From contig SKWY01000161.1 in NCBI GenBank assembly GCA_007128675.1, positions 1 to 25,815 of the forward strand: a stretch of 25,815 bases of DNA, in the 5' to 3' direction. Position numbers and translations under genes: made by a program. Under the pieces are notes generated by a model that saw only the letters and a list, made by a program, of their open reading frames with translations, made no database searches and was not told where the DNA came from. Numbering within the stretch: the stretch's first letter is position 1; every line of letters begins with the position of its first letter. This DNA comes from Deltaproteobacteria bacterium. GTDB taxonomy: Bacteria; Myxococcota; Myxococcia; SLRQ01. Below are positions 1-17,853 of this stretch, piece after piece.

Positions 1-1413
1 AACCTCTCCAGAACCCGCCATCGCCTTGGCGCGCGCGGCGAGGTTCACCGGCTCTCCATACACGTCGGCCCCGAATAAACGAACTTCTCCGGAAGATGCA
101 CCTACTCGAAGTCGCACGGCGAGGTCCTCGGCGGCCTCTCGAGTGTACCGCGCGGCACGGTCCTGCATTGCCGCCGCCGCTTTCATTGCCGAGGTCGGAG
201 AGGAGAAGGTGAAGAGCTGACTTTCCTGGATAGTCTTGACCTTCGTCCCGTCATGCTTCTTCGCGACGGGGACCGTCAAGGCCTCGAATATTGCCGCCAG
301 AGAGGCTTGGTCCTGGTATGAGAGCCGAGTCATCCTCTCCGCCAGATCCTCCATGGAGACGAAAACTACCGTCAGGTTGGCGGTGCGCATGCCCGCTGCT
401 GGCGGCTCCGAGGCATCCCTGCATTCGAGCCCGCTGCTCGTTTCTTCGGCCTCGCTCGAGGGAACCTCGGAAGATGAAGAGGGCTCGTCGGTCGAAGGGT
501 CACTTTCGGTCTCGGACGAGCCATGACCGGTTTCATCTTGGCTGCTCGCGAGGGACCAAGCCAGGGAGAGAGCGCCGGCCGCGGCCTCGGCGGTTGGGAA
601 CCGTTGTGAGGGACGTTTGGCGAGGAGCTGGTGTACCACCTTGGCGATCTCGCGCCCGGTCGGGGAGATCCGTTCGACCAGAGGAGGAGGATCCTCCTGT
701 GCATGCTGGGCGAGAACCTTCCTCGGAGTATCGCCCTTGAAAGGCAGTCGCCCCGAGAGCATCCGATACGCCAGCACTCCGAGCGAGTAGAGATCGCTTC
801 GAGCGTCGAGAGGTTGCCCCATGGCTTGCTCTGGTGAGACGTACTCCGGTGTGCCGACCACCATGCCGGCGGCCGTGAGGGGTGTCCTGTTGGAGTCTTC
901 CACGCCCATGAGCCGGGCGATCCCAAAGTCCACCACTTTGACGCGGCCCTTCGACGAGATGATCACATTGTCTGGCTTCAGATCCCTGTGAATGACTCCG
1001 AACTCATGGGCATGGCCAACGGCGGCGCAGATCTGGACGAGCACATCGACAGACTCTTCCAAGGGAAGCCCAACTCCCCCGGCGAGCATCAGCTCGAGGC
1101 TCTTACCTTCGACGAGGTCCATCACCAGAAATGGTCGATCCTGATGAGCTCCGTAGTCGAGAACTCTCACTATGCCGGGGTGATCCAGACGAGAGAGGAT
1201 CTTCGCTTCGTCCTCGAAGCGGCGTAGGACGACGGGGTCACTGACGCCGGCTCGTAGAACCTTCACCGCCACGGGGCGGTTCAAAGAGATTTGAACGCCT
1301 CGAAAGACCTCCCCCATCGCGCCATCACCGATGCGGGAGTCCAGGCGAAACCTCCCATCGAGGATAGCTCCCACGAGGTTCGTGCCGCCGCCCAATGGAG
1401 AGGAGGAGGTCAT
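1..1413 (-). CDS. Ser/Thr protein kinase fused to a C-terminal class III nucleotidyl cyclase homology domain (C2-like half-site). Partial: the 3' end runs off the window start.
   Basis: I reverse-translated this myself: the minus-strand frame with codon first bases at positions that are 0 mod 3 is open from ATG 1413-1411 down to position 1 (471 codons, no stop). It is absent from the ORF track only because it has no stop inside the window. Kinase motifs: Gly loop IGDGAMGEVF, VAVKVL Lys, HRDLKPDN (rc of 961-996), DFGIA, GTPEYVSPE. An acidic Ser-rich linker follows. The CHD shows FSSP, LRVGASSGEV and DVYGEPVNLAARA (rc of 1-120). Confidence 0.85.
   Translation of the reverse strand, partial: MTSSSPLGGGTNLVGAILDGRFRLDSRIGDGAMGEVFRGVQISLNRPVAVKVLRAGVSDPVVLRRFEDEAKILSRLDHPGIVRVLDYGAHQDRPFLVMDLVEGKSLELMLAGGVGLPLEESVDVLVQICAAVGHAHEFGVIHRDLKPDNVIISSKGRVKVVDFGIARLMGVEDSNRTPLTAAGMVVGTPEYVSPEQAMGQPLDARSDLYSLGVLAYRMLSGRLPFKGDTPRKVLAQHAQEDPPPLVERISPTGREIAKVVHQLLAKRPSQRFPTAEAAAGALSLAWSLASSQDETGHGSSETESDPSTDEPSSSSEVPSSEAEETSSGLECRDASEPPAAGMRTANLTVVFVSMEDLAERMTRLSYQDQASLAAIFEALTVPVAKKHDGTKVKTIQESQLFTFSSPTSAMKAAAAMQDRAARYTREAAEDLAVRLRVGASSGEVRLFGADVYGEPVNLAARAKAMAGSGEV
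558..1374 (-). other. Protein kinase catalytic domain within CDS 1..1413 (approximate bounds)
   Basis: Gly-rich loop through the APE motif, located by my own translation. All canonical catalytic residues (VAVK Lys, αC Glu, HRD, DFG) are present. Confidence 0.75.
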
Positions 1414-2771
1414 TCCTCGTGGTCTCCCTGCTCCAGGGCCGCTATTGCTCTTCGGGCCGCGCCTCGGAAGTCACAGCGAAGCCGGCCCAATCCCAGGGGA
1501 CCACGGGAACGAGAGGCCTCGGCCTCGAGGGCCTTCTCAAGTGCCGGGATGACGTCTTTCTGGCCCGTCAGGGCAAGGGTGTTCGCCGCAGCTCGGCGAA
1601 CGGGACAGCTGTCGTCCTCGAGAGCCTTCACCATTTGTTTCTTGATGGTTCGGTGTCCCGCATACGCGCCGGGCTCTGCGGATATTGCGCCGCGATAGGC
1701 GGCCGCGGCGTCGACGGGACGGTCCTTGCTCCATGCAAGATAGCCGCGCAGGTAGTGGACGTCCGCGTCGCGTTCAGGTCCTTCTTGCGAAAGCTCTTCG
1801 ATTGCTTCGATGGCCTCGGTGTAACGCGCCTCGTTCACGAGGGACTCGATGGATCCTATGGGATCCAACGTAAGGGGGCATTTGATTAGAAGCAGGGTGA
1901 GCGAACCCAAGAGTACCGCCAACAAGCCGCCGCATGCATAGAGGGTTGCTCGCCGGGGAAAGCCGCTGCCGGGTGATTCCAGAAGCTTGTCCTTGAGCTT
2001 CTTGCCGACCGCTTGTCCAACCGCCTCGATCTCTCCGGTGAGGCGGCGCCCATGGCCGCTCGTCGGCTCCGAGGAGCTCTTGACGTTGCGGTCTATCCAA
2101 TCCGCGTCGATGATGTCGAGCTGGGGGGGAGGAGGCAGGGTGCGATTGCCATACGGCGGGCCATCGGCGGCATGAGTGACGCGAGCGGCGCGAAACAGCC
2201 TTACCGCCTCGGGAAGGCCAGGCGCTTGACGTAGGCCGATCTCCTCGGTTGGGGCCTCCTTCCTGTTCATGGCCAGGTAGACCGACTCCGCTATTACGAC
2301 CTCCGAGGCTTCGGCAAAGCCCTCGAGCGCGAGGGCGCTGGTTACGGCCTCGCCGATTAGCTCCTTGTTGCTGACCTGGAGCTCTCCCAAGGTGAGCACG
2401 GCGCGGACCTCTATACGCTGGGTCGAAGGAACCTGGCTATTGTAGGCCCATAGACGGTCCTGTATCGCCATGGCGGAGCGGACGGCGTCTGTCGGAGAGG
2501 CAAAGGTAACGAGCCAGGCGTCTCCGATATCCTTCCTGCGGATGCCTCCGAAGAGCTTGACCACGGGTCCGAGAAGGGCCTCGTGGCGAGCGAGCCAACG
2601 GGCGCTCTCCTCTCTGCTTTGAGATGCCGTGCGCTCGGTAAAGCCCTTGATGTCCGTCAAGAGGACGGTCAGGTTCTCCGTGCGAAAGCTCGTCCGAAAA
2701 ATGCCGCTCATACCCTCGTTGCCTAGCCAGCGGAGATAGCCGCTTACTCGTGCGTCCCGGTACTCCGCCAA
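1410..2771 (-). CDS. Class III adenylyl/guanylyl cyclase homology domain protein (C1-like half-site) with a hydrophobic/TM segment and C-terminal HEAT/PBS-lyase-like repeats
   Basis: 453-aa ORF. The CHD shows LTVLLTDIKGFT (metal Asp), GGIRRKDIGDAWLVTF (Lys + second metal Asp) and RIEVRAVLTLGEL. The hydrophobic stretch is LYACGGLLAVLLGSLTLLLI. The C-terminus has HEAT-like repeats (RRAAANTLALTGQKDVIPALEKALE). The TGA stop at 1412-1410 overlaps the ATG of the downstream kinase gene (ATGA). The start is TTG 2771, which is the 5'-most possible because an in-frame TGA lies immediately upstream. An internal ATG at 2711 is an alternative start. Confidence 0.8.
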   Translation of the reverse strand: MAEYRDARVSGYLRWLGNEGMSGIFRTSFRTENLTVLLTDIKGFTERTASQSREESARWLARHEALLGPVVKLFGGIRRKDIGDAWLVTFASPTDAVRSAMAIQDRLWAYNSQVPSTQRIEVRAVLTLGELQVSNKELIGEAVTSALALEGFAEASEVVIAESVYLAMNRKEAPTEEIGLRQAPGLPEAVRLFRAARVTHAADGPPYGNRTLPPPPQLDIIDADWIDRNVKSSSEPTSGHGRRLTGEIEAVGQAVGKKLKDKLLESPGSGFPRRATLYACGGLLAVLLGSLTLLLIKCPLTLDPIGSIESLVNEARYTEAIEAIEELSQEGPERDADVHYLRGYLAWSKDRPVDAAAAYRGAISAEPGAYAGHRTIKKQMVKALEDDSCPVRRAAANTLALTGQKDVIPALEKALEAEASRSRGPLGLGRLRCDFRGAARRAIAALEQGDHEE

Positions 2772-2857: not shown

Positions 2858-3646
2858 TTGGGGGTGGCCGTGTCAGGGTTCCTCGATCACTTCGTTGCAT
2901 TTCCGACGGTTATCTTCACCGTTCTGCTCGGCATTCTACTGCTCTACTGGCTTCTAGTGATCGTGGGAGCACTCGGTATGCCGTCGGTCGATATCGACTC
3001 TGGCCTTGATAGTGGGCTGGAGGGCATCGGAGACGGGATTGGCGGCGCGGAAGGATTCGACGGGATTGGCGAAGCGGCCGAAGGCGTCGGCGAAGGGGCG
3101 TCGGGCCTTCTTTCGGGTCTCTTTCACGCATCCAAACTGGGAACGGTCCCCGTCACCGTGGCCACGAGCCTTCTGGTTTTTTGGGTGTGGCTCTCCAGCA
3201 TGTTTGGCAGCATCCTCCTTCGTCCCTACTTGCCCGACTGGGGCGCGGCGACGTTGGGCCTTCTCGTTATTCTCCCGCTCTCCTTCATCACGGGTCTGAT
3301 TCTGACCTCCCTCGTAGTCAGGCCGCTTGGGCCGTTGTTCGTGGTTCACGCGGCTCCGAGCAGACGGCAACTCGCGGGGCGCATTTGCGAGGTGAGGAGC
3401 GGAAGCGTGACCTCGGATTTTGGCCAGGCCGAGCTGGCGGACGGCGGGGCGGGCCTGATTCTCTCGGTGCGTTGTGCGAAGGAGAACGACCTGAAGCGAG
3501 GAGATCTGGTGGTCATAGTCTCCTATGACGAAGAGAAGGACACGTACGACGTCGAGCCCGTCGACTGGCTCGAGCCGGGCGAGCGCGTAGGTCGCCATGA
3601 GGCTCAAAGGATTATCCAAGAGATGAGAAAGGCAGGAAGGCTCTAA
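2858..3646 (+). CDS. NfeD-like membrane protein (short NfeD/YuaF type) that partners with SPFH/flotillin
   Basis: The N-terminus has hydrophobic helices. A Gly/Asp/Glu-rich acidic loop follows. More TM helices come next. The C-terminal OB-fold pattern resembles YuaF/NfeD (GRICEVRSGSVTSDFGQAELADGGAGLILSVRCAKENDLKRGDLVVIVSYDEEKDTYDVEPV). The TAA stop overlaps the ATG of the flotillin gene (TAATG). The start is TTG 2858 per the ORF track. GTG at 2864 or 2870 are alternatives. Confidence 0.7.
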   Translation: MGVAVSGFLDHFVAFPTVIFTVLLGILLLYWLLVIVGALGMPSVDIDSGLDSGLEGIGDGIGGAEGFDGIGEAAEGVGEGASGLLSGLFHASKLGTVPVTVATSLLVFWVWLSSMFGSILLRPYLPDWGAATLGLLVILPLSFITGLILTSLVVRPLGPLFVVHAAPSRRQLAGRICEVRSGSVTSDFGQAELADGGAGLILSVRCAKENDLKRGDLVVIVSYDEEKDTYDVEPVDWLEPGERVGRHEAQRIIQEMRKAGRL

Positions 3647-5748
3647 TGTCCGAACAACTGAACTACACTATTCCAGAGGCCTGGTTGCTCGTTGGGACCG
3701 CGATTCTAATTGGCTTCTTCCTGCTCCTTGGCTTCGGCCTCATGGTGAAGGCCTTCTACCGGAAGGTAGACCAGGGCAGAGCCCTCATCATAAACAAGCT
3801 GACGGCAGAGCCCACGGTGACGTTCACGGGAGGCCTCGTCCTTCCGATCATCTATCGCGCGGAGTTGATGGACATCTCCTTGAAGACGATCGAGATCGAT
3901 CGTCGGGGCAAGGAGGGCCTGATCTGCCAGGACAACATTCGCGCGGACATCAAGGTGACGTTCTATGTTCGAGTGAACAAGACGAAGGAGGACGTCCTCA
4001 AGGTTGCGCAGGCGGTGGGGTGCGAGCGAGCTTCCGACCAGCGCACTTTGGAAGAACTCTTCGTAGCCAAGTTCTCCGAGGCTCTGAAGACGGTCGGCAA
4101 GCGTCTCGACTTCGAGGACCTCTACCAGAAGCGAGACGACTTCAAGGATGCGATAGTTCGGGTCATTGGACAGGATCTGAACGGGTATCTCCTCGAGGAC
4201 GCGGCCATCGACTATCTAGAGCAGACGCCGGTGGAGCTGCTCGATCCAAAGAACATCCTCGATGCCCAGGGCATCAGGAAGATAACGGAGCTGACGACTC
4301 GGCAGAACATCTTCACCAACGACTTCCGTCAGACAGAGCGTAAGGAGATAAAGCGGCAGGATGTGGAAGCCGAAAAGGCCGTCCTCGATCTAGAGCGTGA
4401 CGAGGCCGACGCGCGCGCCACGCAGGCCCGTGAGGTCGATACGATGCGTGCGAGGGAGGAGGCGGAGACCCGCAAGATTCAAGCGGAGGAGCAGGCTCGT
4501 TCGGAGTCGGCGAGAATCAAGGCCGCCGAGCAGGTAGCGATCGAGAACGAGAACAAGATGCGACAGATCGAGATTGCCGCCAAGAATCGGGAGCGCGCCG
4601 TGCTTGTCGAGGGCGAGAAGGTTGAACGTGATCGCGCTTTGGAGCAGGTCGCTCGCGAGCGGCAGGTCGATCTCGAGACGATAGAGAAGGACAAGGCGAT
4701 AGAGGTCGAGAAGAAGGAGATCGCCGATGTGGTGCGCGAGCGCGTGGCCGTCGAGAAGAAGGTCGCCGAGGAGGAGGAGAGAATCAAGGATGTTCGCGCC
4801 ATCGAGGAGGCCAGACGTATGAAGGCCGTGCAGATCACGACAGCCGAAGCGGAGGCCGAGGAGAAGCTGGTCAAGGACATAAAGGAGGCCGAGGCCGCCG
4901 AGGAGGCGGCGAAGTTCAGGGCCCGGGAGCGGCTCGTTCTGGCTGATGCCGAGCTAGAGGCATCGGAGAGGGAGGCACAGGCCAAGATTCGGCTAGCCGA
5001 AGGTGTTCAGGCCGAGAGAGCCGCGCCTGGTCTCGGGAACGTCAGGGTTCAGGAAGCGCAGGCCGTGGCAATAGAAAAGCAGGGCCGCGCCGAGGCGATG
5101 GTCGTTCAGGAAAAGGGTCTTGCCGAGGTGCGGGTCCGCGAGCAAGACGCCCAGGCAGTGGAGAAGCTCGGGAAGGCCGAGGCCGTCTCGATTCAGGCAA
5201 GATTGGAGGGAGAGTCGGCGGGTCTTGCGAAGAAGGCGGAGGCGATGAAGCTTCTGGACGACTCCACTCGTCACCACGAGGAGTTCCGGATCCGGTTGGA
5301 GCAAGAAAAGGAGGTCAAGCTCACGCACATAGAGGCGAGGCGGCAGATCGCCGAGCAGCAAGCCATCGCGATGCAGAAGGCCTTCCAGACAGCCAAGATC
5401 AACATAGTCGGCGGTGATGGAGACTTCTTCGACAGGTTCATCAACGCGGTGGGCGTGGGACAGTCGCTCGACGCGGCCATCGAGCAGTCGAGTACGCTGC
5501 AGACAGGGCTTGGCGACTATCTTACCGGTGACCGCAGCTTGCCGGAGGACCTGCGTGAGATCCTCTCCAACCCCGCCTTCTCGAGTCAGGCTCTCCAGAA
5601 CACCTCCGTATCGGCTTTTCTATTGCATTTGATGCGGCGAGCCGATGATGAGACGAAGGAAGAGATAGCTCAGCTGCTGAAGCAGGCGGAGAAGCTGAAG
5701 GCCACAGTCGAGCCGGCGAAGGGCGGCGGCACCAAGAAGTCGCAGTAG
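3646..5748 (+). CDS. Flotillin-like SPFH/band-7 protein (FloT/YqiK family)
   Basis: 700 aa. It has an N-terminal TM helix. The SPFH domain covers roughly aa 55-230. A long E/A/K/R coiled coil follows with flotillin EA repeats (KAEAVSIQARLEGESAGLAKKAEAMKLL). The C-terminal region (AFQTAKINIVGG...) resembles the FloT tail. Confidence 0.9.
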   Translation: MSEQLNYTIPEAWLLVGTAILIGFFLLLGFGLMVKAFYRKVDQGRALIINKLTAEPTVTFTGGLVLPIIYRAELMDISLKTIEIDRRGKEGLICQDNIRADIKVTFYVRVNKTKEDVLKVAQAVGCERASDQRTLEELFVAKFSEALKTVGKRLDFEDLYQKRDDFKDAIVRVIGQDLNGYLLEDAAIDYLEQTPVELLDPKNILDAQGIRKITELTTRQNIFTNDFRQTERKEIKRQDVEAEKAVLDLERDEADARATQAREVDTMRAREEAETRKIQAEEQARSESARIKAAEQVAIENENKMRQIEIAAKNRERAVLVEGEKVERDRALEQVARERQVDLETIEKDKAIEVEKKEIADVVRERVAVEKKVAEEEERIKDVRAIEEARRMKAVQITTAEAEAEEKLVKDIKEAEAAEEAAKFRARERLVLADAELEASEREAQAKIRLAEGVQAERAAPGLGNVRVQEAQAVAIEKQGRAEAMVVQEKGLAEVRVREQDAQAVEKLGKAEAVSIQARLEGESAGLAKKAEAMKLLDDSTRHHEEFRIRLEQEKEVKLTHIEARRQIAEQQAIAMQKAFQTAKINIVGGDGDFFDRFINAVGVGQSLDAAIEQSSTLQTGLGDYLTGDRSLPEDLREILSNPAFSSQALQNTSVSAFLLHLMRRADDETKEEIAQLLKQAEKLKATVEPAKGGGTKKSQ

Positions 5749-5760
5749 AGGGCTACGTCA

Positions 5761-7848
5761 ATGGCGGCCCCACAAGCCAAGGATACAGAGGCGCTCGACG
5801 AGGCGGCGCTCGAAGGCGGAAGCTACGAAGTCTTGCGCCAGCGCCTCCTCGAGCAGGCGCGGATTTTGGCGGAAAAAGCTGCTCGCCTGAACGAGCGACG
5901 TCAGGAGAGCTTTGGTGGAGTGGAGCTATCCATCATCGGCAACGAGCGCATCCGCACGGAGAACAACTGTGTGCCCCAGGACATGGTGCAGGTGCAGGGC
6001 ATGCTCCTGTTTGGCTACAACGTCTTCGTGGGGCTGCGCAAGGAGACGCGTGTCTCCGACGTCTTCGCATTGCACCGGTTCGAGCACGAAGAGGAAGGCT
6101 TCGACCTCTCCGCCGTGCCGCTAGAGGAGGCTCCTGCTAGTCTCTTGCGTCACGAAAGGTTCGTTCGAGAGTTCGAGGAACTCTACCGCTACTACTCGAG
6201 CACTCGCCTTTCGCTTCTTCGTCGCACCGAGTCCAGGCTGCTTGCCGTTTTTCGTGTCGGAGCCGGCGAGAAGGATGTGAGGGTCTTCAGGTGGGAACTC
6301 GATGGCGCTGGAGAAGCCACCTACATCGATAATCGAGGCGAGAGGGAGCACGTCTTCCCTAGATCTCACGACTTCGAGTGGATCGCCACTGGCAGGGAAG
6401 ACCAAGTCAGGGGCCCGCATCCACATGTATCCATCTTGGAGGAGGTCTTCGTCGAGGCGGTCGGTGGCGACCTGACAGTAAAGGTCGAGAACAACACCGA
6501 GGATGGACAGGGAATATACGCCGAGCCGGTGGACGAACCAAGCCAGGGACTGGACGACGGTCAGATCGAGTACGCCAAGGTCGGCAGCCTGATACTGATT
6601 CGGGTGTTGCCGTTTCGCGAGAGCGAATGGCGTCACCTCGTCTTCAATACTCGCACCAAGCAGGTAGCGCGCATAGATGCGATTGGCCAGGCCTGTGTCT
6701 CCTTGCCCGAGGATCAGGGGATCATCTTTCCGGGGGGCTACTACCTGCAGACCGGGGACTATCGCCTCTTCGATACGGACACGAGCGGTCTTCGCTTCAA
6801 GAGAGCTATTCGTTCTCCCAATGGCGAGGATGTTCTCTACGTCTTCCACCGGGACAGCGACGGGCATTTTCTCCTCTTTCCGTACAACATTGTGCGCCAG
6901 GAAGTTGCCAGCCACATCAACTGTCACGGTTACAGCCTCTTCGATGACGGCAAGATGGTCGTATTTCGGGCCGTGAGCGACGAGCCGACGCGGGTGCACC
7001 CCGTCCAGATATGGCAGACGCCTTTCAGCTCCGCCGAGCATGCCGCGGGGCACGCGGTCGATGCTTCCTTCCTAGGACGAATCGGCAACTCCGATCTGGT
7101 GAGGGGCGTCTCCGATTGCTTCACCATCTGCAGGATGGCGCGGTCGGAAGAGGCGGGCCGGGAGACCTACGAGGATTTGGTCGGCCAGGTTCAGCGGGTG
7201 ATCGATGCATACTACTGGCTGTCGGACTCCGAGGTGGAGGACATAGCCTCCAACCTCGCGGAGCTGAAGGCGACCTCCGAGCTGATATTGGACGAGTACG
7301 AAAAGGTCGTCGCGATGAGAGCCAGGGCAAAGGAGGCTCTCTTTACCGCACAGGAGAGAGCCCGGGCCTTGCTGCGAGAGATTCGCCCCGACACATGGGA
7401 GCGAGTCGACGACTTCTTGAAGGCCATGACGGGGCTGCGCACCGAGCGAGGCCACGTAATCACCGTCAAGGATGTTCGCTACGTGGACGTGGCCAGCCTT
7501 GATTCCCTGGAGGAGGAGATTGCCGCCGCTTTCGATGAGGTCAGCGAGGCTGCTGTCTCCTTCTTGCTGAACAAGGACGCATTCGCTTCGATGCGGGAGG
7601 ATCTGGACAGGCTCTCCAGCAGAATCGCCGAGGCGAGGGGCTCCGTGGAGCTGACCGAGCTATTCGAGCGTCTCGACGAGCTTGCCGATTGTCTCACGGT
7701 GCTCGGCGAGACGGTAGGTGGACTCGAGGTCGGCGATCCGACGGCGCGTACAGATTCTTCAAGACGTCTCGGAGGTCTTCTCTCTTCTGAACCGTGTTCG
7801 AGCAACGCTCGCAAACCGCCGCCAGGATCTGCTCGGGCGCGAGGGTAG
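5761..7848 (+). CDS. Large conserved hypothetical protein with an N-terminal coiled coil, a beta-rich middle and a C-terminal helical region. The last ~130 nt are probably not genuinely coding (see the frame transition with the next ORF).
   Basis: 695-aa ORF. A GAGGG SD lies 8 nt upstream of ATG 5761, which is 12 nt after the flotillin stop. GC3 is high through ~7720, then third-codon positions turn A/T-rich up to the stop at 7848. I recognise no domain. Confidence 0.55.
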   Translation: MAAPQAKDTEALDEAALEGGSYEVLRQRLLEQARILAEKAARLNERRQESFGGVELSIIGNERIRTENNCVPQDMVQVQGMLLFGYNVFVGLRKETRVSDVFALHRFEHEEEGFDLSAVPLEEAPASLLRHERFVREFEELYRYYSSTRLSLLRRTESRLLAVFRVGAGEKDVRVFRWELDGAGEATYIDNRGEREHVFPRSHDFEWIATGREDQVRGPHPHVSILEEVFVEAVGGDLTVKVENNTEDGQGIYAEPVDEPSQGLDDGQIEYAKVGSLILIRVLPFRESEWRHLVFNTRTKQVARIDAIGQACVSLPEDQGIIFPGGYYLQTGDYRLFDTDTSGLRFKRAIRSPNGEDVLYVFHRDSDGHFLLFPYNIVRQEVASHINCHGYSLFDDGKMVVFRAVSDEPTRVHPVQIWQTPFSSAEHAAGHAVDASFLGRIGNSDLVRGVSDCFTICRMARSEEAGRETYEDLVGQVQRVIDAYYWLSDSEVEDIASNLAELKATSELILDEYEKVVAMRARAKEALFTAQERARALLREIRPDTWERVDDFLKAMTGLRTERGHVITVKDVRYVDVASLDSLEEEIAAAFDEVSEAAVSFLLNKDAFASMREDLDRLSSRIAEARGSVELTELFERLDELADCLTVLGETVGGLEVGDPTARTDSSRRLGGLLSSEPCSSNARKPPPGSARARG

Positions 7849-10800
7849 GGTCGAGTTCGGGGCCCAGTTCGCTCTGTTCAGTCAGACCGTTGAGAGCGCT
7901 CTAGCCCTATGTGACGAGCCTGACAAGTGCGACGAGCAGCTCTCGCGGGTGCTGGTGACCTTGGAGGAGCTGGAGAGCCGCTTTTCCGACTTCGATGAGT
8001 TCGCGGAGCAGCTGACGGAGAAGCGCGAAGAGGTCTATGAGGCGTTCACGGGCCGAAAGCAGCAGCTACGAGAGGGGCGGCAGCGCCGAGCCGCGAATCT
8101 TGTCGTGGCGGCTGACAGGATATTCCAAGGGATTGAGCGGCGAGCCGGAACCTTCAAGGATCAGGATGAGCTGAACGGCTTCTTCGCTTCGGATCCGATG
8201 GTTCATCGCTTGAGAGGGCTCGTGGGGCAGCTGCGTGAGCTCGATGATCCGGTAAAGGCGGACGAGATCGAGGGACGCTTGCAGTCTGCCAGACAGGATG
8301 CGCTGCGAACGCAGCGCGATAGGGCGGATCTCTTCGAGGAAGGGCAGGCCGTCGTTCGTCTGGGAAGACACAGGTTCAATGTTTCCACCGAGCAGGTCGA
8401 GTTGACCTTGGTGCCTAGAGGCGAGGAGATGATGCTCCATCTCTCGGGCACGGACTACTACGAGAAGCTCGAGGATCCCGAGCTGGAGGCCGCGCGGCAT
8501 CTTTGGCATCAGCAGTATGTATCCGAGTCCGAGGATGTCTATCGGGCCGAGTATCTTGCGGCCCAGATTCTGTTCACGGCCGAGGCGGCGCGGGAAGGGC
8601 TTTCCCTCGCCGGGTTGCACGAGGCCTACCGACAGGACGGCGGCCTGCTCGAGCTCACCCGTCAGTTCGCGGCCGATAGGTACGAGGAAGGCTACGAGCG
8701 AGGTGTTCACGACTCGGACGCCGCGCGAATTCTGGAGAAGCTTCTCGCAATGCGAGAGACGGTGGGCCTGCTTCGGTTCCCGCCGGAGCCCAGGGCGCTG
8801 GCATGTCTGTTCTGGGCGCTACACGAGGACGAGAACGAGCTGGGCAGCATCGCCCGAAGAGCCGGTAGCCTCGGTCGTCTCCGCAATGCCTTCTCACAGG
8901 AGGTGGGCCTCGCCGCGCTCGGTGATGAGCTCGGCCGCAGGATCGATGCATTCCTGGAGAAGGCGGGGATAGAGCACGGCCGCGGTGACGTGCTCCTCGC
9001 GGGACGTTACCTCGCCGAGGAGCTGACTCGCGAGAATCCTCGCTTCGTGGTGGGCCAGGACGCGGTGGTGTTGCAAGAGGCTTTGCTTCGCCACCTCGAA
9101 CAGCACGGGATGCGGACGGCTTTCGAGCAGGACCTCGACGCCCTTCGCCCGTCGCCTCGTCAGGTGCTAGAGCTATTGGTGGCTTGGCTCGAGGGGTTCG
9201 TGCAGAGCCGAGAAGGAAAGAAACACGCGGATAGGAGGGAGTCCATCCTGGCGGCGGCGGTGCTGTTCCTGACCGAGGGGCGTCTGGAAAGAGAGGTCTC
9301 GAGCGCGCGCACTCGGATGGAAATCGAAGGCCTTCTGGGTCAGCATCCGAGAGTGAGTTCGGGAAGGATCGAGGTCAGGCTCGAGGCCTTCTTGGAGCGT
9401 CTAGCTGAATTCATCGAGACGAGGGCTCCAGAGTACAGGGCATACCGAAAGGAGTCCGCCCTCATCCTCGAGCGTGAGCGCCAGCGCTTGAGGCTCGATG
9501 AGCTCAAGCCCAAGGTGCTCACCTCCTTCGTTAGGAACCAGCTCATAAACGACGTCTACCTTCCGCTGATTGGCGGCAATCTCGCCAAGCAGCTTGGCGC
9601 CGCCGGCGCTGATAGGCGGACGGACCAAAGCGGTCTTCTGCTTCTGATCTCGCCGCCCGGTTACGGCAAGACGACGCTGATGGAGTATGTCGCGAGCACT
9701 CTCGGGCTCATATTCGTCAAGGTCAACGGTCCTTCTCTTGGGCATGCCGTGACCTCCCTCGATCCGGCGGAGGCGCCCAACGCCACGGCTCGCCAAGAGG
9801 TGGAGAAGATCAATCTCGCTCTCGAGATGAGCAATAACGTCATGTTGTACCTGGACGATATTCAGCACACCCACTCCGAACTCTTGCAGAAGTTCATAAG
9901 CCTATGTGACGCGCAGCGGCGTGTCGAAGGTGTCTGGAAGGGGCGAACGCGGACATACGACATGCGCGGCAAGCGTTTCGCGGTGGTCATGGCTGGAAAC
10001 CCATATACGGAGGCGGGCGAGCGCTTCCAGCTTCCCGACATGCTCGCCAATCGAGCGGATACCTACAACCTCGGCGATATCCTGGAAGGAAAGGATCAGC
10101 TCTTTGCGCAAAGCTACATCGAGAACGCGCTCACATCGAACCCGGTGCTGAGGCCCTTGTCCGGAAGGGAGCCACGTGATGTGCGACTCTTCATTCGGAT
10201 GGCCAGGGGCGAGGAGATTCCGACCAGCGATCTCTCTCACAACTACTCGGCGGCCGAGATCGAGGAGATCCTCGCGGTTCTACGGCATCTGACGAAGGTC
10301 CAAGCGGTCTTACTCGAGGTGAACGCCCAGTACATTCGTTCGGCCAGTCAGGACGACAGGTATCGCACCGAGCCTCCATTCAAGCTGCAGGGCTCATACA
10401 GAAACATGGCCCGCATCGCGGAAAGAGTCGTCCCGGCCATGACGCCCGAGGAGGTCGAGCGATTGATAGACGATCACTACCTCGGAGAGTCCCAGACCTT
10501 GACCACGGGAGCGGAGCAGAATCTGTTGAAGCTCGCCAAGATGCGCGACCGAGTGAGCGAGGAGCAGGCCGAGCGCTGGGAGGAGATCAAGAGGGGCTTT
10601 GCTCGTCATCAGATCATGGGCTCCAGCGAGGAGGATCCGACCGTTCGAGCCCTCGGGCAGTTGGCCGCTCTCACCGAGCAGGTCAGTGCGCTACGCGATG
10701 TGGTGGCCTCCGCGGCAAAGGCCGGTCGCGTCGAGGCAAGGCAATCAAAGGATGTCGAGAAGAGCGAGAAGGCCGAAGCTCGTAAGAGGAGCCTCGAGGA

Positions 10801-11530
10801 GAGCGCCGAGCGCGAAGCCAAGGAGAGGCTCGAGGCCATGCGGATGCAGTCCGAGCTTCACCTAGAGGCATCCACAAAGGCAGCGCTACTGCAGGGAGAG
10901 CAGCAGGCCAAGGCCTTTGGAGAGGCGGCACGGGTTCAGGCGCACGCTCAGATGGAGGCGGCCAGGCTCCAGGTAGAGGCCAAGATGGAAGCGGCCAAGA
11001 CTCACGCTCGGGCTCAGGCGCAGATCCAATCGAGGCTCGCCGAGGTGCTCGTTCCGAGGCTCGAGTCTCTGGAGAAGGCATTGGCCAAGGTGGCCGAGTC
11101 CGCCGCCAAGGCATCGAAGGCCGCCGCCAAATCCAGCCCATCGGCGACAGGCGAGGCTCACTCTGCTGCAGCGGTTGATCTATCGCCCCTGATCGAAAAG
11201 CTCTCGGACACGCTCGAGGCCCTGGCCGACCGAAAGGTGGAGCTTCAGATTCCTCCGGATGCTTTCATGGGCCCGATGATGCCGCCGCTCGCGCTGTCAC
11301 AAGGTTCCATCGAATCGGGTTCGGCGCCGGGTGAGGGCGAGGAAGGCCAGCCGTTGGGTCCACCTGGTTATTCCCATCAGCTCCGGCTCATTCAGGATGC
11401 GCTCATGCCACTTCGCCAGTTGTCTCGTCGCCAGATCCGAGACGGCGAGGGGAAGATGAGTGCGATGCAGGTTTGGCGACAAGTGAACGAGGCCTTGCAG
11501 GTGGTCCAGGCGGCCGCATTTTGGAAATAG
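7718..11530 (+). CDS. Very large protein with a central MoxR-like AAA_5 ATPase domain and a C-terminal flotillin-like EA-repeat coiled coil
   Basis: 1270-aa ORF. Walker A is LLISPPGYGKTTL (~9645-9676). Walker B is VMLYLDDIQH (~9840-9869). There is a helix-2-insert-like segment. Sensor-1 is FAVVMAGNPYTE (~9984-10013). An Arg-finger-like LANRADTYNLGD follows. The C-terminus has AEA-rich repeats. The GTG start at 7718 lies immediately after an in-frame TAG, with no convincing SD. Confidence 0.75.
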   Translation: MDSRSAIRRRVQILQDVSEVFSLLNRVRATLANRRQDLLGREGRVEFGAQFALFSQTVESALALCDEPDKCDEQLSRVLVTLEELESRFSDFDEFAEQLTEKREEVYEAFTGRKQQLREGRQRRAANLVVAADRIFQGIERRAGTFKDQDELNGFFASDPMVHRLRGLVGQLRELDDPVKADEIEGRLQSARQDALRTQRDRADLFEEGQAVVRLGRHRFNVSTEQVELTLVPRGEEMMLHLSGTDYYEKLEDPELEAARHLWHQQYVSESEDVYRAEYLAAQILFTAEAAREGLSLAGLHEAYRQDGGLLELTRQFAADRYEEGYERGVHDSDAARILEKLLAMRETVGLLRFPPEPRALACLFWALHEDENELGSIARRAGSLGRLRNAFSQEVGLAALGDELGRRIDAFLEKAGIEHGRGDVLLAGRYLAEELTRENPRFVVGQDAVVLQEALLRHLEQHGMRTAFEQDLDALRPSPRQVLELLVAWLEGFVQSREGKKHADRRESILAAAVLFLTEGRLEREVSSARTRMEIEGLLGQHPRVSSGRIEVRLEAFLERLAEFIETRAPEYRAYRKESALILERERQRLRLDELKPKVLTSFVRNQLINDVYLPLIGGNLAKQLGAAGADRRTDQSGLLLLISPPGYGKTTLMEYVASTLGLIFVKVNGPSLGHAVTSLDPAEAPNATARQEVEKINLALEMSNNVMLYLDDIQHTHSELLQKFISLCDAQRRVEGVWKGRTRTYDMRGKRFAVVMAGNPYTEAGERFQLPDMLANRADTYNLGDILEGKDQLFAQSYIENALTSNPVLRPLSGREPRDVRLFIRMARGEEIPTSDLSHNYSAAEIEEILAVLRHLTKVQAVLLEVNAQYIRSASQDDRYRTEPPFKLQGSYRNMARIAERVVPAMTPEEVERLIDDHYLGESQTLTTGAEQNLLKLAKMRDRVSEEQAERWEEIKRGFARHQIMGSSEEDPTVRALGQLAALTEQVSALRDVVASAAKAGRVEARQSKDVEKSEKAEARKRSLEESAEREAKERLEAMRMQSELHLEASTKAALLQGEQQAKAFGEAARVQAHAQMEAARLQVEAKMEAAKTHARAQAQIQSRLAEVLVPRLESLEKALAKVAESAAKASKAAAKSSPSATGEAHSAAAVDLSPLIEKLSDTLEALADRKVELQIPPDAFMGPMMPPLALSQGSIESGSAPGEGEEGQPLGPPGYSHQLRLIQDALMPLRQLSRRQIRDGEGKMSAMQVWRQVNEALQVVQAAAFWK
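9600..10150 (+). other. AAA_5 (MoxR/dynein-related) ATPase core within CDS 7718..11530 (approximate bounds)
   Basis: The motif order is Walker A, Walker B (hhhhDD), an insertion, then a sensor-1 containing the NP dipeptide, then a conserved Arg. This is the order typical of the MoxR/AAA_5 clade. Confidence 0.65.
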
Positions 11531-13765: not shown

Positions 13766-14242
13766 ATGTCTGATGGAAAAGAGAGCCCCTCAACGGCCGG
13801 TTTGAGCCGCCGGACAAGACAGATCCTGGAGGTAGTCTACCGGCTCGAGCGCGCTACGGCGGCGGAGATTCAGCAAGCTCTTCCCGATCCGCCTAGCTAC
13901 TCCGCGGTTAGAACGCACCTTCGGATTCTGGAGGAGAGGGGCCATTTGACCCATGTCTCCGAGGGGCCTCGATATGTCTACACTCCCAAGGTTCCTCGCG
14001 AACGAGCCTCTCGCGGAGCCATTCGCCACTTGGTGGATACCTTTTTCGAGGGCTCCGTTGCTCACGCGGTGGCCGCGCTCTTGGACACCTCGAGCTCGAA
14101 GCTATCGCCCGAGGACGTGGAGCATCTGAAGGTTCTCATCGAGGATGCGAGAAAGGAATCTGCTTCACGGTCCCAAGATGCCGCCGCGCGACCTGCGAGA
14201 AGCCGCCGCGGCGCATCGAAACGTAAGGGGGAAGGCAAGTGA
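13766..14242 (+). CDS. BlaI/MecI/CopY-family (penicillinase-repressor-type) winged-helix transcriptional repressor
   Basis: 158 aa. The N-terminal wHTH pattern is RQILEVVYRLERATAAEIQQAL...SAVRTHLRILEERGHL. A C-terminal dimerisation helix follows. An M56 BlaR1-like peptidase gene overlaps its stop (GTGA at 14239-14242). Confidence 0.8.
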   Translation: MSDGKESPSTAGLSRRTRQILEVVYRLERATAAEIQQALPDPPSYSAVRTHLRILEERGHLTHVSEGPRYVYTPKVPRERASRGAIRHLVDTFFEGSVAHAVAALLDTSSSKLSPEDVEHLKVLIEDARKESASRSQDAAARPARSRRGASKRKGEGK

Positions 14243-15444
14243 GTCTATTGCTCGAGTCCACCATTAGGTGGTCGGTGCTTCTCCTGCTCGTCTTTGCGTT
14301 TTGTTTTTTTTGGCGAGGTTCCGCGGCCGTAAGGCACCTCGCCTGGACCTTTGGCGCCGTAACCGGTCTGCTCTTTGTCGTGATCGGGTTGCTTGGACCG
14401 ACCTGGACCCTGACTCTGCCATGGTTGCAGGCTGCCGCGGCCGATCCCGTCGTGACCACCAAGGCTTCCTCGTCCTCGTCGGGGGCCCCGGTCGCTGCCG
14501 CATTCTTTTGGCCGAACCTTCTTCTCCTAGGCTGGCTGCTGGGATCGCTCTTGCTGATGGGTTGGACCTTGCTCGGGGTCGCCCTCTCCGCGCTTCTCTT
14601 GCGGGAGGCGACCGAAGTCCGAAGGCCCCTTCCCGATGTCGCGGAAGGCATTTGCGTGCGCTCGAGCAGCCGGGTCTCAGGCCCGGTCACAGTGGGGTTG
14701 TTGCGACCTGTGATAGTAGTGCCAAAACGCGCCTTGTCATGGACGCCGGTTCGTTGGGATGCGGCGCTGGCTCATGAGGCGGCCCATGTGCGGCGCAAGG
14801 ATGTCCTGATACGGTGCCTTGGCGCGCTCGTCCGGGCCGTTCATTGGCCAAACCCCTTGGCATGGGTGATGCTCTCGCGCATTCGTCACGAGGCCGAGAT
14901 GGCCGCCGACGAGTCGGTCTTGGGCTTGGGTGTAAGGCCGGCCGATTACGCCGAGTTGCTTCTCGAGGAGAACGATTACCTGGGCCGTGGCCTTGGACCG
15001 CTGGTCTCCGTCTCCATGAATCGAGGAGATCTCTCCCGTCGAATCAAATGGGTGCTTGGAAGATCGCGGCGGGCTCCGCCGCCCCGTGGATACGTTGCCA
15101 TTGGCGCCCTGTTGGCAATGTTTTTCGCAGTTCCCGCGGCGATCGTCACCTTCGTACCTCCCGAAGCCGAGCCGGCCGAAACAGCCGGCGCGGCAGGTGA
15201 TGGCGCCGATTCATCTGCGGTCGCGTCGGCTCCACGGACCATTCACGCCCGCGTGGGAGATCTTATTTCGGAGCGCTTCGATGGCATCTCCAGGATTGCC
15301 ATATCCAACCCCTCGAGCCTCGACGTTCGGCATCCAGTGGATGGCGAGATCGTAATGGAGGCGCTGGCCCCCGGTGATTCCAGCGTCCTGATTTGGCTTG
15401 GGGGGCAGGAGCCGGCCGAGAGGCTGATCGTCGAGGTCGAGTAG
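14239..15444 (+). CDS. BlaR1/MecR1-like peptidase M56 signal transducer with a noncanonical C-terminal secretin/pilus-N-like sensor domain
   Basis: 401 aa. It has N-terminal TM helices. The zinc motif is HEAAH (AHEAAHVRRKD) with a downstream EMAADES Glu. A final TM helix comes next. Then there is a ~100-aa extracellular tail (RIAISNPSSLDVRHPVDGEIVMEALAPGDSSVLIWL) instead of a penicillin-binding domain. Confidence 0.8.
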   Translation: MSLLLESTIRWSVLLLLVFAFCFFWRGSAAVRHLAWTFGAVTGLLFVVIGLLGPTWTLTLPWLQAAAADPVVTTKASSSSSGAPVAAAFFWPNLLLLGWLLGSLLLMGWTLLGVALSALLLREATEVRRPLPDVAEGICVRSSSRVSGPVTVGLLRPVIVVPKRALSWTPVRWDAALAHEAAHVRRKDVLIRCLGALVRAVHWPNPLAWVMLSRIRHEAEMAADESVLGLGVRPADYAELLLEENDYLGRGLGPLVSVSMNRGDLSRRIKWVLGRSRRAPPPRGYVAIGALLAMFFAVPAAIVTFVPPEAEPAETAGAAGDGADSSAVASAPRTIHARVGDLISERFDGISRIAISNPSSLDVRHPVDGEIVMEALAPGDSSVLIWLGGQEPAERLIVEVE

Positions 15445-15458
15445 GAGGACACATCTAC

Positions 15459-15818
15459 TCATCCATCCGTCACGGTCACGTGAACGGACACCTTGGAGTC
15501 GTCGGGAAGCCATATTAGGACGCTGGCCTCGCCGGAGGACAAGCCCTTCAGGAGCACGTGCCCCGAAGAGTCCACACGAGTGTCCAATGTGTCCGGATTG
15601 CTGATGGCTACTCGGGTCACGGGCCCGTAATCGAGGCTCACCTCTTCACCCACCACGAGCACCACGGTATCCATGGCCTCTCTATCATGCCGCTCATCAG
15701 CGCCGGCGCTGTGACCAACGAGGCCGGCGAGCAGAAGGCTGCTCACCAAGATGATCAGGCGGATGGCGCCTGGCCGTAATACTCGCAAACTCTCTCTCTT
15801 GCCTTTTCGGTCGTTCAT
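15459..15818 (-). CDS. Small secreted protein carrying a pilus-formation/secretin N-terminal-like beta domain (paralogous to the BlaR1-like C-terminal domain)
   Basis: 119 aa. The signal peptide is RLIILVSSLLLAGLVGHSAGA. The domain is VSLDYGPVTRVAISNPDTLDTRVDSSGHVLLKGLSSGEASVLIWLPDDSKVSVHVTV. The gene is convergent with the M56 gene and separated from it by 14 bp. Confidence 0.6.
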   Translation of the reverse strand: MNDRKGKRESLRVLRPGAIRLIILVSSLLLAGLVGHSAGADERHDREAMDTVVLVVGEEVSLDYGPVTRVAISNPDTLDTRVDSSGHVLLKGLSSGEASVLIWLPDDSKVSVHVTVTDG

Positions 15819-16269: not shown

Positions 16270-17853
16270 ATGAACGGTGTGCGAACGAATTCCAAGATCG
16301 GGCTCGTGGCCGTGATGGCCATGGCCCTTTGTATCGGCTGCTTGGTAGAAGGCGGTGGAGTAAGAAATGGGCACGACGAGACGCATCGCGAGGACTCTTC
16401 TCCTTCCTATGACACTGGCGATGGAAACGTAGGAAGCAATATCGGCTTTGGAGGGGAGCAGGATTTTGCTTATTTCAGGACGCAGCTGGACAATGGCGTG
16501 GTGCCCGACCCGGATGTGCTCCAGGCCTCCGGCTTCTTTGCCGAGCACCACACATCCTTGCCTCCGCCTGAATGCGGCCAGACTCTCTGCCTTCATCCTA
16601 TGCTAGGGGTGGCCGAGGACCCCCTCGGGGGTGAGCCTCGTACCGTCTTGCAGATCGGCCTGAACACTCCAATCGAGCTCAACCCAGACGAGCGGCCAGA
16701 TCTCGATCTCTCCTTGTCGATAGACGTCTCTGGATCGATGAGCGCCGACAACCGCATCGGATATGTGCGAAGCGGCCTGGAGCTCATGCTGGACGAACTC
16801 TTCGACGATGATCGAGTTGCGATCATCATCTACAGCTCCGATGCGAGCGTGCTGCTCCCGATGACGCGCGTCGGTGATTCTCGAGAGGAGATCCGCGAGC
16901 ACATCCAGTCCTTGCAGGCCGGGGGGATGACGGCCCTGTACGCTGGTCTAGAGCTTGCCTATCAGGAGTCCTTGGAGCATTTCGATCCCGAGCGTGAAGC
17001 GCGCGTCATAATGCTTAGCGATGGCCAGGCCAACGTCGGTCCTAGCGCGGACGATGAGATTCTCTCCATGAGCCGGGAGTACAACGACGAAGGCATCGGG
17101 CTGACGACGATCGGTCTTGGAAGCAGCTTCAATGTGGACCTGATGCGAGGGCTGGCGGAACAGGGCGAGGGCAACTTCTACTACGTCGGCTCCGCGGCGG
17201 ACGTGGAGGATGTCTTCACGGTCGAGGTGCATAGCTTCACGGTGCCCGTGGCGCGGGACGTGCTCATCGAGGTCGAGGAAGGTTTCCGTTACACCTTCCA
17301 GCAATCCTGGGGGAGCCCGCATTGGGAGGATCTGGAGGACGGCGGGACGCTCGCTCTCCCCTCGGTCTTCGCGGCGTGGCGAACTTCTCACGATGACACC
17401 ACGGACTCTGGCGGCCGGCGAGGCGGTGGTTCTGCCTTGCTGTTGGAGCTTGCGCCCCGGGACGACGTGCCGGAGGATGTATCCGAGGCCGAGGTTGCGA
17501 GGATAACCTTGTCCTACGAGGATCCCGAGCTTGGCGAATACGTGGAGGAGACGACAGAGGTCGTCTATCCCTATCACCCAACATTCCTGATGGCGGGAGG
17601 CTACTTCAGCTCCCATGGGCAGGGAGTGATCATGAAGAGCTTCGCCATGCTGCATGCCTACCTGGCCCTCAAGGAGGGATGCCGCCTCTTCCACGAAGGC
17701 GAGGCCGAGGAGGCAATCGAGCTATTGAGCGCTGTCCAGGAGCCCCTCTCCGACCTCGAGTCGCGGCTGAACGATGGAGAAGGCGACGAGGATATCGAGC
17801 GGGATATCGAGCTCATCGAGCAGCTTCGCGAGGTTATTGAAGCGCACCTATAG
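16270..17853 (+). CDS. YfbK-like von Willebrand factor A (vWA/MIDAS) domain secreted/lipoprotein
   Basis: 527 aa. An AGGAG lies 9 nt upstream of ATG 16270. It has a signal peptide with Cys residues (LCIGC). A YfbK-type N-domain follows (DFAYFRTQLDNGVVPDPDVL). The vWA domain has the MIDAS motif DVSGSMS and LSDGQANVG, and then an acidic helical C-terminus. Confidence 0.85.
   Translation: MNGVRTNSKIGLVAVMAMALCIGCLVEGGGVRNGHDETHREDSSPSYDTGDGNVGSNIGFGGEQDFAYFRTQLDNGVVPDPDVLQASGFFAEHHTSLPPPECGQTLCLHPMLGVAEDPLGGEPRTVLQIGLNTPIELNPDERPDLDLSLSIDVSGSMSADNRIGYVRSGLELMLDELFDDDRVAIIIYSSDASVLLPMTRVGDSREEIREHIQSLQAGGMTALYAGLELAYQESLEHFDPEREARVIMLSDGQANVGPSADDEILSMSREYNDEGIGLTTIGLGSSFNVDLMRGLAEQGEGNFYYVGSAADVEDVFTVEVHSFTVPVARDVLIEVEEGFRYTFQQSWGSPHWEDLEDGGTLALPSVFAAWRTSHDDTTDSGGRRGGGSALLLELAPRDDVPEDVSEAEVARITLSYEDPELGEYVEETTEVVYPYHPTFLMAGGYFSSHGQGVIMKSFAMLHAYLALKEGCRLFHEGEAEEAIELLSAVQEPLSDLESRLNDGEGDEDIERDIELIEQLREVIEAHL

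Follow-up and report, generated by a model that had tools for sequence, protein, structure and literature searches.

The 25,815-bp contig SKWY01000161.1, deposited in public databases within the Deltaproteobacteria bacterium assembly GCA_007128675.1 and analyzed here over its entire length (hereafter, the window), carries what its sequence identifies as a three-gene cassette encoding a YqiJ-like membrane protein, a YqiK-like flotillin and a giant AAA+ ATPase. The flotillin and ATPase genes keep company far beyond this organism, pointing to a real link between their products, and the ATPase gene of the window is interrupted by a change of reading frame. A first-pass annotation of the same DNA had seen here a four-gene operon in which an NfeD-flotillin pair was extended by two giant proteins, and had proposed that the ATPase acts together with the flotillin. 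We found its functional intuition to be sound, while its anatomy was misread, because one broken gene had been taken for two proteins, and its claim to novelty fails.

Searching one genome per species returned at least 597 ATPase loci; the best 80 of these came from Myxococcota, Actinomycetota, Gammaproteobacteria, Acidobacteriota, Planctomycetota and Eremiobacterota. Hidden Markov models built from homologues of both upstream proteins were searched against the related loci, and synteny counts were restricted to loci with sufficient upstream DNA. In 74 of the 76 informative loci, a co-oriented flotillin-like gene immediately preceded the ATPase gene (in the remaining two it lay 0.5 and 6.4 kb away), and in 69 of 74 the flotillin gene was itself immediately preceded by a YqiJ-like gene. 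Because this order is kept across at least six phyla, we concluded that chance adjacency, which the first-pass annotation had named as the outcome that would undo its proposal, is excluded, and that the functional tie it had drawn between the ATPase and the NfeD-flotillin pair holds. Clustering of the open reading frames (ORFs) flanking the related loci yielded no fourth gene conserved across phyla, the other neighbors being variable. Across phyla, the propeller region of the ATPase is 47–64% identical and the AAA region 58–72%. The cassette is also carried by a few megaplasmids, pQBR103 among them, and was not found in phage genomes. Some Myxococcota-type loci contain a second, more divergent flotillin-like ORF (L027, 6058–7722; L010, 3453–5252), which in L027 separates the YqiJ-like gene from the main flotillin gene.

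Contrary to the earlier statement that nothing of this organization had been described, cassettes of this kind are already known from comparative genomics, because Ravi et al. (2024, mSystems; bioRxiv 2020; PMC11237479) describe the operon, forms without PspA included. Their operons join CesT/Tir-PspA to three further products, namely a YqiJ/YuaF protein with three transmembrane segments, a protein combining Band-7, coiled-coil and flotillin regions, and a protein combining a beta-propeller, coiled coils and an AAA+ ATPase, sometimes also with a PLD hydrolase. These authors note a wider distribution for abbreviated operons, which have only the flotillin, YqiJ/YuaF and, in some cases, the ATPase, and which may act with a PspA encoded elsewhere; the same gene order is listed in their Table S3 for Dokdonia donghaensis, beside ANH61663.1. 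They predict sub-membrane dynamics and propose chaperone-like assembly roles, in a comparative-genomic account of a few sentences. The three proteins and their order are the same in our loci, among which we recovered both the long and the short form independently, whereas the window holds the short form with its ATPase gene frame-broken. No experimental study of the cassette was found in the literature, and an ATPase partner goes unmentioned in the survey of SPFH operons by Hinderhofer et al. (2009; PMC2636767).

The surroundings of the cassette indicate that it is recurrently joined to phage-shock-protein (PSP)-type membrane-stress operons. Genes for DUF2170 (YjfI) and PspA/IM30 were directly upstream of it in 10 of 81 related loci, all of them gammaproteobacterial (Table 1). 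Rhomboid genes were present near the cassette in six gammaproteobacterial loci (L062 and L064 included) and PLD-family genes in four loci, in both cases mostly downstream. On pQBR103 (425 kb, Pseudomonas fluorescens SBW25; L085, NC_009444.1 87142–106326), the cassette (PQBR_RS00460–00470) comes directly after genes for DUF2491, DUF350, DUF1190 and a glutathionylspermidine-synthase-like protein, corresponding to the yjfK-L-M-C set; 8.6 kb downstream of the cassette there is a gene of the PLD family. Near the cassette of the window, neither a CesT/Tir nor a PLD gene was detected.

The interrupted ATPase gene

The coordinates and sizes given to the ORFs of the cassette by the first-pass annotation were confirmed in the sequence (Table 1), as were a TAATG junction at 3644–3648, in which the flotillin start overlaps the upstream stop, and a 12-nt spacer between the flotillin stop and the ATG at 5761, with GAGGG ahead of that ATG. 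The last two ORFs (ORF3 and ORF4) had been described as adjoining with a minimal gap; instead, they share 131 nt that are read in different frames. Pfam domain DUF7902 (PF25472) is cut in two by this change, with its columns 1–60 matching residues 606–665 of ORF3 and its columns 58–84 matching residues 10–36 of ORF4. In a DNA alignment with the closest relative (L001, 79% protein identity), we observed a 2-nt gap in the window at approximately position 7751, where the window reads GCGCGTAC--AGATT and the relative reads GCGCGTACCAAGATC. Joining 5761–7749 to 7748–11530 restored a reading of 1,923 amino acids (aa), which is 52–79% identical to full-length members of the family. It has more than 6,300 homologues, which carry the NCBI name "DNA repair ATPase", and the best 120 of these are all single chains of ~1,650–1,970 aa (the shortest being partial records), mostly from Myxococcota. 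Moreover, the ATPase frame is intact in 82 of 82 related loci.

Since a single domain is divided between the two ORFs, the gap is apparent against L001, the best 120 homologues listed are single chains and none of the 82 loci shows a frame change, we concluded from these comparisons that ORF3 and ORF4 are one ATPase gene interrupted by a frame change, and therefore that the operon reads as three genes rather than four. That two adjacent genes encode separate proteins of 695 and 1,270 aa has, in our estimation, practically no chance of being right: both long ORFs do exist in the window, but the overlap, the Pfam domain spanning the break, the gap and the single-chain relatives all speak against independent products, and no plausible start or Shine-Dalgarno sequence for the second ORF was seen by eye. 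Specifically, none was seen upstream of GTG 7718, which is a mechanical start only, nor was there any other start codon with a ribosome-binding site that could serve the downstream part of the ATPase. Programmed frameshifting was considered as well and rejected, as the relatives read through in a single frame and a slippery motif was not seen at the site by eye.

A second, independent contig from essentially the same organism (L083; ENA ERZ27301262 k141_776557) carries a flotillin gene identical to that of the window. This contig stops 46 nt upstream of the 2-nt gap, and the frame break therefore coincides with an assembly breakpoint. The two contigs are distinguished by one single-nucleotide polymorphism ~60 nt before the gap, at which the window encodes Cys and the family consensus is Gly (window 7690–7752; L083 13860–14060). 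The frame break stems either from an error in assembly or from a recent inactivating mutation, and we judge an artefact or strain heterogeneity no less probable than a genuine pseudogene.

At the other end of the cassette, the first gene has its mechanical ORF start at TTG 2858, while GTG 2870 has GGGGTGG just upstream and fits a database product of the same contig (P0241, 258 aa). On the basis of the P0241 length and of homologue alignments, this gene probably starts at GTG 2870.

Composition of the encoded proteins

Direct Pfam, NCBIfam and PDB sequence searches of both upstream proteins returned nothing significant, and PDB searches with profiles of their close homologues gave no match, so the identities of this pair rest on hhalign comparisons with E. 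coli YqiJ and YqiK and on Pfam matches in homologues. The flotillin alignment (A4) matched E. coli YqiK with a probability of 99.8% (E = 4e-28) over 390 columns, covering the membrane anchor, the SPFH domain and the coiled coil. Pfam Band_7 was found in 5 of 22 close flotillin homologues (best E = 7e-13), the NCBIfam match of the window flotillin is limited to FloT at E = 3e-4, and many homologues are annotated by JGI as "uncharacterized membrane protein YqiK". From its N terminus, the flotillin comprises a single hydrophobic segment (aa 8–39) predicted to serve as membrane anchor, an SPFH/Band-7 domain and a coiled coil of ~370 aa rich in E, A, R and K (residues 231–600; 19% E, 18% A, 11% R and 9% K), beyond which lies a C-terminal domain that is conserved. 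E. coli YqiK has 553 aa compared with 700 aa for the window protein, the C-terminal region of which lies outside the reported alignment. In the YqiJ-like protein, three hydrophobic segments are joined by a Gly/acidic linker to a putative C-terminal beta domain. Its match to E. coli YqiJ is weak but consistent (probability 69%, E = 4e-5, 127 columns) and covers the second and third transmembrane segments and the C-terminal domain; Pfam YqiJ_N is present in 2 of 20 of its homologues.

Profile comparison thus upholds the NfeD-flotillin pair that had been called from the letters of the sequence, although no direct Pfam match accompanies it, and the pair can be assigned by homology to the YqiJ/YqiK (SPFH2) type. 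It is homologous to, and in the same order as, yqiJ-yqiK of E. coli and yuaF-floT of B. subtilis, which pair an SPFH2 protein with a short NfeD; in E. coli K-12, yqiK is followed by sibD/ibsD, with no ATPase gene.

In the ATPase, Pfam identified, in this order, DUF3686 (PF12458, E = 4e-206), DUF7902 and AAA_5/AAA (PF07728/PF00004). No transmembrane segment was predicted, and the Pfam search returned no protease, MIT or enhancer-binding domain. DUF3686 is present in 776 of 1.84 billion cluster representatives, and occupies the N terminus in full-length chains of ~1,600–2,000 aa. A confident structure model of residues 1–490 (predicted local distance difference test, pLDDT, 86.5; predicted template modeling score, pTM, 0.85) shows a helix at the N terminus and then an all-beta domain, and the best PDB fold matches of this region are beta-propellers with low Z scores (7.5–8.9). 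As modeled, the DUF3686 domain is a divergent propeller-like fold without a close solved relative. In the model of the next 964 residues (pLDDT 81, pTM 0.43), long helices lead to a small beta unit and a helical domain; these are followed by an AAA+ core, whose sensor-1 strand is preceded by a beta-hairpin, and then by a helical lid. A PDB profile search with the full ATPase retrieved only the Walker A region plus coiled-coil noise. The first-pass annotation had left about 1,000 residues unassignable, and this was partly justified: some of this sequence belongs to DUF3686 and DUF7902, both families of unknown function, whereas the remaining helical region indeed matches nothing.

The four AAA+ motifs read in the first pass (GYGKTT, YLDDIQ, MAGNPYTE and LANRADTY) are all in ORF4, and the motif residues are invariant or nearly so in an alignment of 34 sequences from several phyla (A7), with Walker A, the sensor-1 Asn and a conserved Arg invariant. 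In all 34, the Walker B motif is of the form hhhhDD and not the canonical hhhhDE. Foldseek comparison of the AAA+ part returned weak matches (E ~1e-2) to MCM, NorQ/CbbQ of the MoxR family, RuvB and ClpB/Skd3 alike, all of which belong to the pre-sensor-1-hairpin group of AAA+ proteins. The ATPase also has an "NP..E..G....LP....NR" stretch that resembles the MoxR signature. With AAA_5 scoring above the Pfam cut-off of 22 bits (Table 1) and NorQ/CbbQ among the best fold matches, the MoxR-like assignment made earlier is plausible but not established; the weakness of the fold matches and the DD form of Walker B count the other way. The ATPase resembles the MoxR family (RavA, NorQ, CbbQ) in its single AAA+ module, which contains a P-loop and, as modeled, a beta-hairpin before sensor-1. 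It differs from that family in being ~6 times larger, in carrying a propeller and ~1,000 residues of helical arms, and in its Walker B residues; moreover, the cassette has no conserved VWA partner gene, and its AAA+ fold matches MoxR proteins no better than MCM or RuvB. The VWA gene that does occur in the window lends no support to a MoxR-type partnership, because unrelated genes intervene and no neighbor beyond the upstream pair is conserved.

Proposed mechanism and rival explanations

The first two products of the cassette are membrane-anchored homologues of YqiJ and YqiK, and the third is a soluble protein of ~1,900 aa with an AAA+ module that, as modeled, is of the pre-sensor-1-hairpin (MoxR/MCM/RuvB-like) type. 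We think it rather likely that together they carry out ATP-driven remodeling of flotillin scaffolds, or of PspA/ESCRT-III-like polymers, under membrane stress, a role suggested by the PspA/DUF2170, rhomboid, PLD and pQBR103 yjf-type gene context. In such a mechanism, flotillin and YqiJ would build an oligomeric scaffold at the cytoplasmic face of the membrane, and the ATPase would oligomerize via its AAA+ module and dock on the scaffold via its propeller and coiled-coil parts. ATP would then be used to assemble, disassemble or reshape the flotillin scaffolds, or the PspA/ESCRT-III-like polymers recruited there, during membrane stress or repair. Vps4 acting with ESCRT-III and FtsH with HflK/C are known parallels by analogy. 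These two systems and PspA with PspF would each correspond functionally to the cassette in combining an oligomeric membrane scaffold with a dedicated AAA+ ATPase, whereas homology is limited to the generic SPFH and AAA+ folds. The more specific proposal, that the giant ATPase is a dedicated assembly and disassembly factor for flotillin cages and the PspA polymers recruited to them, we regard as tentative and rather doubtful.

Several observations weigh against scaffold remodeling. A PspA gene was found neither in the window nor, for the loci from Myxococcota and Actinomycetota, at a distance of up to 10 kb from the cassette, and for the window organism the PSP link would therefore be indirect. 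Because Walker B has the DD form in all members examined, ATP hydrolysis by the ATPase may be slow, regulated or regulatory. The fold matches of the modeled AAA+ part, at E ~1e-2, are weak. Finally, if the frame break is real, the cassette would be non-functional in the window organism.

The main rival to scaffold remodeling is that the ATPase works on clients and not on the scaffold: the flotillin/YqiJ cage would corral membrane-protein clients, which the ATPase would unfold, extract or assemble, in an arrangement resembling HflK/C-FtsH minus the protease domain. SPFH cages are known to enclose AAA+ proteases, as in HflK/C-FtsH and prohibitin-m-AAA, and an AAA+ fold with a pre-sensor-1 hairpin fits substrate threading. 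Staphylococcus aureus FloA-NfeD is moreover reported to stabilize unfolded proteins (as cited in PMC13086221), and the chaperone-like assembly roles suggested by Ravi et al. (PMC11237479) point in the same direction. We nonetheless consider a client-directed chaperone or extractor unlikely, given that Pfam finds no protease or effector domain in the ATPase, that no conserved client gene is present among the cassette neighbors, and that the propeller and long coiled coils resemble docking or spacer elements rather than a substrate-entry domain. Considerably less probable is an anti-phage or other conflict system, spread horizontally, in which flotillin/YqiJ would be the sensor or effector and the ATPase the switch. 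The patchy occurrence of the cassette over distant phyla, combined with the high sequence identities given above, would fit such a history, as would its presence on megaplasmids. However, none of the four ORFs had a match in PADLOC at E <= 0.01, for which reason we set the defense reading aside; the absence of the cassette from phage genomes also speaks against it, its neighbors are housekeeping or PSP/polyamine genes and not defense islands, and Pfam reveals no effector domain of the nuclease, TIR, Sir2 or toxin type.

The names in use for the ATPase imply yet another function, in which a DNA repair enzyme merely adjoins a flotillin operon. Pfam refers to DUF3686 as "ATPase involved in DNA repair", in line with the NCBI name, and one could add the weak RuvB matches at the P-loop and the recC gene 6.7 kb downstream in the window. 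The similarity to RuvB is, however, confined to a stretch of ~45 residues at Walker A, domains of the DNA-binding, helicase or nuclease type were not found, the invariant partners of the ATPase are two membrane proteins, and no paper backing the name was found in the literature; recC adds no support, because it is not a conserved neighbor of the cassette. We regard a role in DNA repair as very improbable and "DNA repair ATPase" as a misleading database name, for which nothing that we found provides support.

If scaffold remodeling is indeed what the cassette does, the ATPase would be the first known motor on an SPFH scaffold, giving flotillin a partner with a Vps4-like role, and its strict co-inheritance with a single YqiK subfamily would mark out an "active" class of flotillin microdomain in membrane repair. 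In a recent P. aeruginosa study, deletions of SPFH genes were without pronounced phenotypes. One flotillin subfamily being nearly always encoded with a huge, conserved AAA+ ATPase (in at least 597 species-level genomes) provides an experimental handle on scaffold function: mutants of, and substrate traps in, an energy-consuming partner could reveal what the scaffold is for, and pQBR103 in P. fluorescens SBW25 offers a tractable host for such experiments, other tractable carriers being Myxococcus xanthus, Streptomyces and Proteus mirabilis. The window contig itself holds an unremarkable, frame-broken copy of an operon already described computationally.

Feature coordinates and neighboring genes

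Table 1. Features of the cassette in the window, with the related loci linked to PspA/DUF2170
Feature	Position	Strand	Remarks
YqiJ/YuaF-type (short NfeD-like) membrane protein gene	2870..3646	+	mechanical ORF 2858-3646, 262 aa
YqiK-type flotillin gene	3646..5748	+	700-aa ORF; hhalign, Band_7 in homologues
Beta-propeller/coiled-coil/AAA+ ATPase gene	5761..11530	+	~1,923 aa once frame repaired
ATPase ORF3	5761-7848	+	695 aa
DUF3686 domain	5761..7230	+	N-terminal helix, then divergent beta-propeller-like all-beta domain (modeled)
DUF7902 helical domain	7576..7825	+	PF25472, broken by frame change
ATPase ORF4	7718-11530	+	1270 aa
Frame-break site	7750..7753	+	2-nt gap vs relatives, ACCAAG -> ACAG, outside any homopolymer; DNA and protein alignments
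AAA+ core	9638..10066	+	Pfam AAA_5 30.5 bits, AAA 29 bits
Walker A GYGKTT	9659-9676	+	in ORF4
Walker B YLDDIQ	9848-9865	+	in ORF4; DD, not DE
Sensor-1 MAGNPYTE	9989-10012	+	beta-hairpin precedes
LANRADTY arginine	10043-10066	+	in ORF4
PspA/DUF2170-linked loci	L047, L048, L059, L060, L068, L070, L072, L073, L077, L078		L047 segments 5602-7006, 15337-16667

Genes neighboring the cassette in the window encode a cyclase/TPR/HEAT protein, an inositol monophosphatase, a BlaI/BlaR1 pair, a VWA protein and RecC. On the downstream side, a secreted or lipoprotein-like VWA-domain protein is encoded at 16270–17853 (+), 4.7 kb from the ATPase gene with unrelated genes between, and the recC gene (exonuclease V gamma) occupies 18236–22141 (+). 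From 22141 to the contig end no long ORF was listed; possibly one runs off the end, and we would guess it to be recB. Closer to the cassette, at 13766–15444 (+), a BlaI/MecI-type repressor gene (Penicillinase_R) overlaps by 4 nt with the gene after it, which encodes a BlaR1-type M56 peptidase sensor. The C-terminal part of this sensor matches a pilus-formation N-terminal region, and the same domain is present in a divergent small ORF at 15459–15818 (-). Upstream of the cassette and divergent from it lies a gene at 1410–2771 (-), whose 453-aa product combines TPR and HEAT repeats with a weak nucleotide-cyclase domain. At 5219–9126 of the longer sister contig L083, the gene for this cyclase/TPR/HEAT protein adjoins that for an 849-aa protein combining Ser/Thr kinase, cyclase and TPR domains.

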